DNA of 23,022 nucleotides. Source: an uncultured Lachnospiraceae bacterium (lineage in GTDB: Bacteria > Bacillota > Clostridia > Lachnospirales > Lachnospiraceae). Numbering within the stretch: the first letter of the stretch is position 1; the number at the start of each line of letters is the position of its first letter. The notes below the pieces were generated by a model. The model searched no databases and was not told the DNA's origin. It worked only from the letters and a program-made list of their open reading frames with translations. Location: positions 1 through 23,022 of the forward strand of contig CAPFLK010000011.1 in assembly GCA_948612235.1 (NCBI GenBank), written 5' to 3'. Made by a program: the position numbers and the translations under genes. Below, in pieces: positions 21,048 through 23,022 of the stretch.

Positions 21048-21281
21048 TCATTTCCTTTTAAGTTTCTTATATAAATTATCCCAAAATATCGTCCATACTG
21101 CACACCAACAAACGAATAATCCCACATTAATATCTGCGGTTTCCCATTTATTAATATAATAGATTACGATAAATGTTATGATGAAAATTAATCGAATTAA
21201 GTCTCTCAATTTATTACAATATCCAGTATATAAAGCAGGTGTTCCAGCTAATATAAATGAAAACAAAATATATTCCATCAT
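21048..21281 (-). CDS. Small predicted membrane protein (two TM helices).
   Basis: 77-aa ORF with two hydrophobic helices. It overlaps the RT stop by 4 nt. Confidence 0.35.
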   Translation of the reverse strand: MMEYILFSFILAGTPALYTGYCNKLRDLIRLIFIITFIVIYYINKWETADINVGLFVCWCAVWTIFWDNLYKKLKRK

Positions 21282-22321
21282 TTTTCTCCTATAAATAATT
21301 TTTCTATATATCTATCCATCTCATATCCCAATTTCACACAATTGCCATGTGATATATGATTTTTCCAAGCATTGTAACTCTCATAAAATTTCTCTTTGCT
21401 AAGTTTTCCACACCTCACTAATCCAACCATTTTCTTAAATTTCTTTTTAGCGGCACGTTTATTTTCGTTCTTCAGCTTTCGGATTACTTTACCACCTGAA
21501 GTCACATATGTATGAAAACCACAAAATTTGATTCCATTTTTAAAAGGAATGACCTGAGTCTTACTGTTTAATTCAAGACCTAATGAATACACAAACTCAT
21601 AAATAGCTGCTAAACACCATTTCGCATATTCTTTATTTGGCACTATCAAATAAAAATCATCCATATATCTACCATAGTATTTGACGCCGAGTTAACCAGT
21701 AATAAAGTGATCCAAACCTGATAAATATAGAAGTGCGAATACCTGACTGATCTGATTACCTAAAGGAAGTCCTAATCCCTCTGTACTATTAATAAACTTC
21801 TCACATAACCAATATACATCCTTATCTTCTATAAAATAACCCACAATAGCTTTCAAAATATTATGGTCAATATTATAAAAGAATTTACTTATATCAGCTT
21901 TTACAATCCAACAATCATATCCATATTTTTGATATGCAAGAAACATTTGCGCTCTCAAACAATCCAAACCATACAGTGTACCTTTACTAATCTGGCCAGC
22001 ATAATTCGTTTGAATAAATTCTTTATTAAATTTTGGAATCAATACATTATCACACAAACTATGCTGAATAATCTTATCTACAAATGAACACGACTTAATG
22101 ACCCTTTCTTTTGGTTCATATATTGTAAATTCATTATATTTAGATACTTGATATGTCTTTGTTTCTAATCTTCTTTTTATTTGGTGAATGCCATCAAGAG
22201 CAACTACTTGAAACTTCTGGCTACTTTTTGAGAATCCTTTACTTGACTTAGATTTTAAGTATGCTTGATACAAATTGCCGAAATCTATAATTTTTCCAAA
22301 ATCTGTTTTATCTTCTATCAT
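21278..22321 (-). CDS. DGR-type reverse transcriptase, about 347 codons, interrupted by a single in-frame TAA at 21692-21694.
   Basis: RT motifs 1-2 are present. The DGR-specific motif 4 LGLPLGNQISQ ([ILV]GxxxSQ, not QGxxxSP) is present. LSGLDHFITG-TAA-LGVKYYGRYMDDFYLIV aligns with BPP-1 bRT LDALDHHIKETLRVRGYVRYMDDFVLF. The two annotated ORFs (209 and 128 aa) are in the same frame, 27 nt apart. Confidence 0.8.
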
Positions 22322-22424
22322 AATATTTTGTTCCTTTGTATTTATCCTGGCGTTTTTGATTCAGGAAAGGTTGCCTATTCTTTTGAAATCGGGACTCTAA
22401 TTTCAGTGTTTCTCTTACTCTCTT

Positions 22425-22535
22425 TCGTCTTCCGATCCAGAACGGGCGGACACCTTTGTCATAGTCACAGTGGTTGTAGTTCACGTTGCCATCAGAGTTG
22501 ACATACTGAACATAGTGGCCATACAATAGACAACC
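22425..22535 (-). repeat. Putative DGR template repeat between avd and the RT gene.
   Basis: Locally GC-richer and adenine-rich, with four in-frame AAC codons (YVNSDGNVNYNH). It ends in a GVRP-type codon pattern typical of C-type-lectin variable regions. The 72-aa ORF called here is most likely the TR read as protein. Boundaries are approximate. Confidence 0.45.
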
Positions 22536-22540
22536 TATAA

Positions 22541-22909
22541 TTATCTTTCTTTATCTTTTGAACGCCATGCAATACTCATGTATTTCACATCATTTATTTG
22601 TTTCTGCCAATATCCAACTGTATCACTTCCAATCAAATTAAGTTTCATAGAAAGTTCCACATAACAGGATAGTTTATCACAGCACGAAATTGCTTTTGTT
22701 TGCAACTCTTGGCGTTCCGATTTTGAAGTATCCAATTTCAGCCTATTTGCATCAAGTAAATATTCATATATATCCATACAGCGACTTTGGATACGTTTTA
22801 CCAATGTCAAATGCTTAACTGGATACCTCTTTCGATTTGATGTAATTGTCATAGTATATTCCATAAGATTTATTGCTTTTACAATAACATCCAGTTTCGC
22901 TTCGCTCAC
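22541..22909 (-). CDS. avd: Accessory variability determinant (Avd)-like small helical-bundle protein. GTG start.
   Basis: 122 aa, basic and helical, sited immediately upstream of TR and RT as in canonical DGR cassettes. RBS ggagga 5 nt before GTG. Confidence 0.55.
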   Translation of the reverse strand: MSEAKLDVIVKAINLMEYTMTITSNRKRYPVKHLTLVKRIQSRCMDIYEYLLDANRLKLDTSKSERQELQTKAISCCDKLSCYVELSMKLNLIGSDTVGYWQKQINDVKYMSIAWRSKDKER

Positions 22910-22950
22910 TGGTTCCTCCGCTCCTTTCAGTCGCTCACCGGCAAGTCACG

Positions 22951-22970
22951 GCAAGGGCTTACGCCCTCGC
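22951..22970. other. GC-rich hairpin (gcaagggc ttac gccctcgc: 8-bp stem with one A-C mismatch, 4-nt loop), about 45 nt upstream of avd.
   Basis: Seen directly. Its geometry (8-bp GC stem, tetraloop) matches the cruciform or hairpin that sits just downstream of VR/IMH in Bordetella-phage-type DGR targets. Confidence 0.4.
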
Positions 22971-23022
22971 CTGTTCCCTGGCTAACCCTCCATGTTCCGC
23001 AAGATAAAAAGATTTAAGATTA

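Follow-up and report, generated by a model that had tools for sequence, protein, structure and literature searches.

Introduction

The diversity-generating retroelement (DGR) of Bordetella phage BPP-1 is laid out as mtd-avd-TR-brt: a target gene that carries the variable repeat (VR), the accessory gene avd, a template repeat (TR) and the gene for the reverse transcriptase (RT). Directly downstream of the VR, within a required sequence of 24 bp, lies a hairpin with a GC-rich stem of 7-10 bp and a 4-nt loop; its structure matters and its sequence does not (PMC3240598). In published cases the hairpin follows the VR by 4-34 bp and its loop has the consensus GRNA (Guo et al. 2011, PMC3240598). Here we examine a cassette with the same order of parts at the right end of a 23,022-nt stretch of DNA from an uncultured Lachnospiraceae bacterium (contig CAPFLK010000011.1). 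We refer to this whole stretch as the window.

Two further sets of systems bear on the locus. Phages nd12 and nd4 (PMC10743442) and the Faecalibacterium prophages Lelie, CP11, Roos and Pioen (PMC11792537) carry DUF6273 targets with a C-terminal VR and a lectin-like fold. Two targets per DGR, one small and one larger, have been described in these phages. Damaged elements form the other set: the survey of Wu et al. in 2018 dropped more than half of its candidate DGRs, which had premature stops, were truncated or showed a poor match between TR and VR (PMC5758913).

We find that the element is a canonical DGR of gut Clostridia, of the type with DUF6273 targets. With high confidence, we read the avd-TR-RT cassette as the DGR of a temperate phage or integrative element. 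In this reading its VR and C-type-lectin target lie just past the edge of the window, a second target lies elsewhere, a hairpin serves as the recognition element and the copy in the window is most likely inactive. A single nonsense codon in the RT gene, which the first-pass annotation of the window did not report, is the reason for the last point.

Results

Differences between the repeats fall at template adenines

One mark of a DGR is a TR/VR pair whose differences are confined to template adenines. A candidate TR had been placed at about 22425-22535. We locate it at 22522-22441, where in the frame of the VR it reads ...GHYVQYVNSDGNVNYNHCDYDKGVRP, with four AAC codons; a 72-aa open reading frame (ORF) called across it (22308-22526) is not a gene. 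The window holds no VR, as the first-pass annotation had also concluded. Neither a repeat search nor a dedicated scan ignoring TR adenines found one, and in the best adenine-tolerant 40-mer matches to the TR, non-A mismatches still amount to at least 30%, no different from a reversed-TR control.

Where, then, is the VR? The annotation expected it, with its target gene, just beyond position 23022, differing from the TR at adenines only, or else at a remote locus. We obtained public contigs by exact look-up of the Avd protein. Two of these, L001 and L004, are 99.92% identical to the window over 10.5 kb, and a third, L005, is 99.95% identical over 1.9 kb; the last base of the window is position 9888 of L001. 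A gene for a 255-aa protein, target 1, ends at L001 9869, with its stop codon 19 nt beyond the window. A copy of the TR forms its 3' end at L001 9769-9850, 38-119 nt beyond the window. Both parts of the expectation hold in these contigs. Against this placement stands the fact that the window's own parent contig is seen only to 23022, and what lies past it is inferred from contigs that are 99.9% identical.

Six VR versions occur in this lineage, and 84 of the 85 in-repeat mismatches between them and the TR are at TR adenines. Each of the 22 TR adenines varies in at least one VR version, and none of the 17 TR copies seen departs from the others. In each of ten more distant genomic relatives, TR and VR form a pair of their own that is again adenine-specific. 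The two repeats share a GC-rich end, GGTGTCCGCCCGTT, and then diverge to TTTCATC in the VR and CTGGATC in the TR. This resembles the arrangement of initiation of mutagenic homing sites (IMH after the VR, IMH* after the TR) also found in BPP-1, where differences from the TR are likewise at adenines only.

The whole cassette lies on the minus strand, as do all genes of the window, whose GC content is 33%. From the right end the order is a GC-rich segment with the hairpin, avd, TR, spacer and RT frame; avd, TR, RT and hairpin had all been annotated at or near the positions given here.

22917..23022, minus strand: window portion of the 159-nt post-VR flank; the window ends within the flank
22950..22971, minus strand: GC-rich hairpin, 9-bp stem, GTAA loop on the sense strand; likely target-site recognition hairpin
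22541..22909, minus strand: avd, 122 aa, GTG start, GGAGG ribosome-binding site (PHROG 3206, NCBIfam NF033474)
22441..22522, minus strand: TR, 82 nt, 22 adenines, identical in all 17 copies
22322..22440, minus strand: TR-RT spacer, 119 nt, non-coding, conserved RNA structure (RNAalifold)
22321-21278, minus strand: full RT frame, interrupted by TAA
21692..22321, minus strand: N-terminal part of the RT, 209 codons, motifs 1-4 including LGNQISQ, ending at the premature TAA
21692..21694, minus strand: premature TAA at RT codon 210, GAA (Glu) in intact alleles
21278..21691, minus strand: C-terminal remainder of the RT in the same frame, YMDD and thumb, untranslatable as part of the RT in the window allele

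The accessory protein next to the TR and RT, described earlier as an Avd-like protein of 122 aa, matches PHROG 3206 ('Avd protein of DGR') with an E-value of 2e-17. It also matches the NCBIfam model DivGenRetAVD (NF033474) with an E-value of 9e-7, at 29 bits against a curated cut-off of 80. It has no match in Pfam or among PDB sequences.

Two targets share one flank

In DGRs the VR lies in a protein-coding target, typically in a C-terminus with a C-type-lectin or immunoglobulin-like (Ig) fold. Target 1 carries its VR in the C-terminal of its two domains. This domain models as a C-type-lectin fold of the DUF6273 type, in line with the suggestion that the upstream ORF would end in a C-type-lectin or Ig-like fold. 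Foldseek against viral models matches the target to DUF6273 proteins of gut phages; in Pfam, target 2 scores above the DUF6273 cut-off and target 1 below it. The N-terminal domain has no known fold. Variation in the protein is concentrated in the VR: the 12 full-length (255-aa) members of the target 1 cluster that were compared with the L001 type show at most three scattered differences from it over the first 221 residues. Two of the 12 have the same VR, and the other ten differ at 5-13 positions within its roughly 26 residues.

The remote locus that had been allowed for exists as well. Cluster look-ups reveal a second target of 202/216 aa, whose C-terminus is of the same VR type and which shares its long contigs with target 1. 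In the 120-kb contig CAPGOD010000002.1 the two genes have the same orientation, with the second target about 29 kb upstream of the first. Its VR, in an L001-like strain, differs from the TR at 19 adenine sites and by one T-to-C change. The sequence that follows is identical to the flank of the first VR (VR1) for 159 nt; the identity begins at the last variable adenine and stops 8 nt short of the next start codon. Downstream of this flank is an unrelated 98-aa gene, not avd.

In one related contig (L102 10548-10770, contig of L002) the VR of the second target differs from the resident TR at several non-adenine positions. It resembles the TR of other relatives, such as L021, and its flank has a small indel in an AT-rich hairpin. 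This target may be an orphan or may be templated by a different TR.

The shared flank also bears on why the window ends where it does. The 159 nt after VR1 and VR2 are 100% identical (L001 9835-9993 equals the flank in L096), and the window ends inside this sequence, of which the genome has two copies. Breaks or wrong joins are also seen here in public assemblies (L010, L011, L004 and L119): L011 starts exactly 30 nt inside the repeat end, which is k-1 for k = 31, and L010 starts 40 nt inside. For these reasons we infer that the VR is missing from the window as an effect of assembly or windowing and not because it is biologically absent.

Reciprocal joins are seen across the 229-nt repeat made up of VR and flank: target 2 is joined to avd in L004/L094 (3276-4384), and target 1 to the 98-aa gene in L119 (2601-3796). 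In addition, a 293-aa protein (P0278) fuses the VR of target 1 to sequence from downstream of the TR. These joins and P0278 are either assembly chimeras or real recombinants that have deleted about 29 kb.

The reverse transcriptase belongs to the DGR class

The annotation called the RT DGR-type from its LG...SQ motif 4 and its YMDD context, both aligned with Bordetella phage bRT. Searches with the joined RT lead to the same class. It matches Pfam RVT_1 (E 5e-14) and PHROG 1423 (E 5e-105), and its best match among all PDB sequences is bRT (8ub7, E 7e-33, 297 aligned residues). LGNQISQ (motif 4) and YGRYMDD (motif 5) align with IGSLTSQ and ARYMDD of bRT. DGR-clade RTs are marked by these motifs and by bRT as nearest relative; here the gene that encodes them is interrupted by TAA.

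Could the RT instead belong to a group II intron, a retron or an abortive-infection or defense-associated RT (Abi/DRT) system, with the adenine-rich repeat a coincidence? The top NCBIfam match is indeed a group II intron maturase, by default, since NCBIfam has no DGR-RT model. Its score is 104 bits, far under the 300-bit cut-off; Drt3a scores 60 against 200 and retron RT 33 against 235. The best group II intron RT in the PDB has an E-value of 1e-15 and the best retron RT 6e-14, so that bRT leads the solved structures by 17 orders of magnitude. No curated cut-off for these classes is reached and no partner RNA accompanies the gene: at threshold, Rfam finds no family, intron RNA included, in the window or the cassette, spacer and hairpin among them. 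The order avd-TR-RT and an adenine-specific VR are both present. We give this explanation practically no credence and reject it on the best match to bRT together with the adenine-specific TR/VR differences.

A covarying hairpin follows both variable repeats

A hairpin with an 8-bp stem had been noted about 45 nt upstream of avd and interpreted as a target-site element. It is there, with slightly different dimensions: the sense strand reads GGCGAGGGC-GTAA-GCCCTTGCC (window 22971-22950), with nine pairs (eight Watson-Crick and one G.T) closing a 4-nt loop, and avd starts 40 nt downstream. No other GC-rich 4-nt-loop hairpin of its class occurs on either strand of the 23-kb window, for which first-order Markov simulations give an expectation of 0.007. 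Folded whole, the 151-nt post-VR region does not do better than shuffled sequence (z -0.31), and the local hairpin alone stands out. A promoter and terminator scan between target and avd found nothing above chance.

In relatives the stem keeps its pairing while its sequence changes. A comparison anchored on the loop finds GAGGGC/GCCCTT, GCTGC/GCAGT, AATGC/GCATT and GGCTGC/GCAGCC, that is, at least four different stem sequences, with loops of GTAA, GTCA, GGGA or GTA. (MAFFT plus RNAalifold on the pre-avd region misaligned hairpins of unequal length, gave a weak result and was replaced by this comparison.) The hairpin follows both VRs and is absent after the TR. At the second locus the flank that contains it precedes a gene unrelated to avd, so the hairpin belongs to the VR flank and not to avd. 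It is likely a cis-acting element of target recognition.

The interpretation as a target-site element thus gains from the second locus and from covariation, but other features of the hairpin depart from the published pattern and tell against this role. Its distance from the VR end is 82-88 nt here and about 60 nt in relatives, more than in any published case. Its GTAA loop is outside the GRNA consensus (PMC3240598). Seven G.T wobbles and no A.C are found, and the full stem forms on the sense strand only; such G.T pairs fit RNA or single-strand structure better than a two-strand cruciform.

These last features would suit an RNA element of the target 3' untranslated region (UTR) or the avd 5' UTR that acts in stabilization, processing or translational control, with no part in DNA target recognition. 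So would its position: in most relatives the hairpin starts 57-62 nt before the downstream start codon (44 nt in L022), and its distance from the VR varies from 60 to 88 nt. Several points argue the other way. The hairpin is present with the VR flank at a second locus too, ahead of a gene unrelated to avd, and in size, GC-rich stem and 4-nt G..A loop it agrees with the class that experiments showed to be needed for BPP-1 homing. It has no T-run, hence is no intrinsic terminator. Nor are RNA and recognition roles mutually exclusive. We consider a purely RNA-level function unlikely and prefer target recognition.

The flank may even be portable. A tentative idea, which we think has the smaller share of probability, is that the 159-nt block, made up of the IMH end and the covarying hairpin and reaching up to the next ribosome-binding site, is a module for recruiting targets. 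If so, copying the block and the 3' end of the lectin domain onto another gene would suffice to enrol that gene as a DGR target. The hairpin would then act from 60-90 nt, about three times the documented distance.

A second hairpin, AT-rich, lies directly after the VR at L001 9861-9885, outside the window. It is a lineage-specific insertion of 27 nt and is not conserved.

The TR is predicted to pair with the spacer

RNAalifold on 11 relatives predicts 31 pairs in the spacer region, nine of them with compensatory changes. In one stem the 3' end of the TR (~22443-22432, just past the GC-rich end) pairs with ~22392-22377, about 45 nt downstream. Across relatives this stem appears as ATCGG/CCGAT, GACAG/CTGTC, GGCGG/CCGCC and GATGG/CCATC. 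A spacer hairpin at ~22370-22333 stands ahead of the RT ribosome-binding site. In BPP-1, base pairs between the TR and the spacer (Sp) set up priming from A56 of Sp (PMC6182149). Pairing of the TR 3' end with the spacer is common to both elements, and by analogy the stem here is a putative priming duplex.

A nonsense codon interrupts the RT gene

Codon 210 of the RT frame is TAA (21694-21692), between LGNQISQ of motif 4 and YGRYMDD, and ORF calling therefore splits the frame into products of 209 aa and 128 aa. The intact RT has 347 aa. L002, L003 and L006 have GAA at this codon and no other difference over 1047 nt, so that a single G-to-T change separates the alleles. We checked 13 further relatives: Glu is found in all 12 that can be read in frame, and L074 is frameshifted. 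bRT, too, has Glu at the aligned position.

TAA is a real and common allele and not a sequencing error, because it recurs in independent assemblies from ENA, JGI, Logan and NCBI. The exact 209-aa product is recorded in 76 blocks of the public collection, and about half of the avd-bearing contigs sampled carry the allele. Recoding of the stop codon or a suppressor tRNA can be set aside as explanations, because 15 of the 26 window genes checked end in TAA, the commonest normal stop there, and neither the window nor the seven loci L001-L007 have a tRNA or suppressor tRNA gene. The RT should be truncated ahead of its catalytic YMDD. Most likely, to judge by the allele, the window copy can no longer diversify its targets, a single base change having cost it RT function.

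VR1 is of one and the same version, P0271, in all TAA contigs that extend to it. This is weak evidence for inactivity; intact-RT lineages also keep stable VRs (P0272 on 16 contigs, P0273 on nine), and an unchanging VR is thus no proof of a dead RT. Inactivity would accordingly be a prediction from the allele; past activity is shown by the VR variants in the population. L004, a TAA contig, had seemed to point to diversification after the mutation, as its VR is another one. That VR, however, is the VR of the second target, joined to avd through the 229-nt repeat; because L004 is an assembly chimera or a recombinant, with L119 as the reciprocal join, it is no evidence of activity. Exact-pattern scans around the stop codon gave no match in IMG/VR and, in JGI metagenomes, one 3.3-kb contig with the G allele and without a VR, and for this reason no table of allele against VR could be drawn from these collections.

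Might the cassette still be active in spite of the TAA? The stop codon could be read through or suppressed, or an intact RT could be supplied in trans by a co-resident related element, with TAA as a leaky or conditional off-state. The allele is very common, shows no further decay over its 1047 nt, which speaks against simple loss, and leaves TR, avd, spacer structure and target flank intact; DGR components are known to act in trans (PMC5758913). Set against this are the use of TAA as the commonest normal terminator, the lack of a tRNA gene in the loci named, the one VR1 version across TAA contigs and the origin of the only apparent 'second VR' on a TAA contig, L004, in the other target gene. 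Cluster members P0279 and P0281, moreover, have point changes elsewhere in the protein and an unchanged VR. Continued activity strikes us as improbable, and we keep to an inactive window copy. As a more speculative addition, the Glu210-to-TAA allele may be a maintained off-state and not decay.

Other decay is visible in the lineage. The RT of L074 is frameshifted, as noted, and L112-L114 have lost the 3' half of avd, the TR and the RT by deletion but kept target 1. In these three contigs (L112 3368-3700) target 1 has its VR and lacks the 27-nt AT-rich insertion after it. The intact-RT strain L002 carries an IS605 OrfB/TnpB (Cas12f-like) gene (12837-13892) about 1.2 kb downstream of the RT, an insertion that the window lineage lacks.

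Host element and neighboring genes

Mouse-gut Lachnospiraceae are the hosts of the closest relatives of the RT (83-92% identity), among them bacterium 1xD42-87, Lachnospiraceae MD308, Eubacterium plexicaudatum ASF492, Roseburia sp. 1XD42-69, Lachnospiraceae A4 and Konateibacter massiliensis. The K. massiliensis locus lies inside a 3-Mb scaffold, so the element is integrated. Genes near the cassette encode an integrase, a resolvase, toxin-antitoxin pairs, Abi_alpha, an HNH endonuclease, methyltransferases and a T7 gp5.9-like RecBCD inhibitor, and several neighbors have PHROG matches. No structural genes were seen in the roughly 33 kb examined, and megablast of the cassette against deposited phages gave no nucleotide match. 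The element is best read as a temperate phage, or a phage-like integrative element, of mouse-gut Lachnospiraceae.

Several other genes of the window, all on the minus strand, deserve mention. An 814-aa protein (12359-14803) combines vault-repeat domains with a Major Vault Protein shoulder of eukaryotic type (Pfam E 8e-22). All related contigs conserve this MVP-like protein, which matches no PHROG and is unusual for a Lachnospiraceae phage or mobile element. At 6338-10785 lies an RNA-repair set: an RNA ligase with a PHA02142 OB domain, a DHH/DHHA1 phosphoesterase, a CCA-adding/PolyA_pol+HD enzyme and an RlaP nucleotidyltransferase. In related contigs a Thg1-like gene is found upstream of the DGR (L001 5484-6358). 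The set looks like a tRNA-repair, anti-defense module.

An ABC-type trio occupies 1984-6263, consisting of an ATPase (4907-5518), a permease (5502-6263) and a 538-aa fusion of an NMT1-type binding protein with an OmpA domain (1984-3600). Beside it is a PspA/IM30-like protein (3612-4349), and the group is odd cargo for a phage region. In a 200-aa protein (607-1209) the last ~40 residues match the RecBCD-inhibitor domain of T7 gp5.9 (Pfam E 1e-15; PHROG 6234). Finally, 16298-18972 holds a C5 DNA methylase (16298-17635), an HNH endonuclease (17748-18458) and an overlapping 173-aa methyltransferase fragment (18451-18972), and may be a methyltransferase gene split by insertion of a homing endonuclease.

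Discussion

How would such an element work? In an intact copy, to judge by homology, RT and Avd would bind the TR-spacer RNA, and the conserved duplex of TR 3' end and spacer would position priming as its analog does in BPP-1. Synthesis of cDNA with misincorporation opposite template adenines would follow, and the cDNA would replace the VR at the 3' end of the target gene. The hairpin in the post-VR flank would mark the target for recognition. In the window copy, G-to-T at the Glu210 codon would stop the RT, leaving the linked VR as a frozen record of past activity.

Compared with BPP-1, the order target(VR)-avd-TR-RT is the same, an Avd homolog is present in both, the RTs align over 297 residues that include IGxxxSQ and YMDD, and a GC-rich 4-nt-loop hairpin lies downstream of the VR in each. 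The differences are these. A nonsense codon truncates the RT of the window. In place of the Mtd tail-fiber protein, the target is a protein of 255 aa with two domains, one of them a C-lectin domain of the DUF6273 type. The hairpin stands 82-88 nt away, not directly downstream of the VR, and has a loop of GTAA where BPP-1 has GAAA. There is also a second, non-adjacent target.

The closest annotated phage RTs are those of nd12 (47.5% identity) and the Faecalibacterium phages (about 35%). The DUF6273 targets of those phages also model as C-type-lectin folds with the VR at the C-terminus of the domain. With RT identity of 48% at most, no nucleotide match to deposited phages and a host clade of mouse-gut Lachnospiraceae, the present element is nonetheless distinct. 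Its targets sit among accessory and defense-type genes with no recognizable tail genes adjoining in the 33 kb examined, and the N-terminal domain of target 1 resembles no known fold.

Like the inactivated DGRs of Wu et al. (PMC5758913), this lineage includes damaged copies: the nonsense allele, the deletion of the avd 3' end, TR and RT (L112) and the frameshifted RT (L074). What sets it apart is that the intact and nonsense alleles lie one base apart and co-circulate in one host-associated population. The loss event can thus be pinned to one nucleotide.

For annotation, the locus is a case of a real DGR whose target is cut off by the edge of the window and whose RT, because of one stop, can be called as two unannotated ORFs. 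The system was already well known and our understanding of DGRs is unchanged. Three points are worth keeping: the co-circulating alleles, the identical flank at two targets and the covarying hairpin unusually far from the VR, which at 60-88 nt modestly extends the known spacing of DGR target-site hairpins. With intact and nonsense alleles one base apart, a deletion derivative and two targets that share an identical recognition flank, the lineage is a natural comparison for how fast a VR freezes after the RT is lost.

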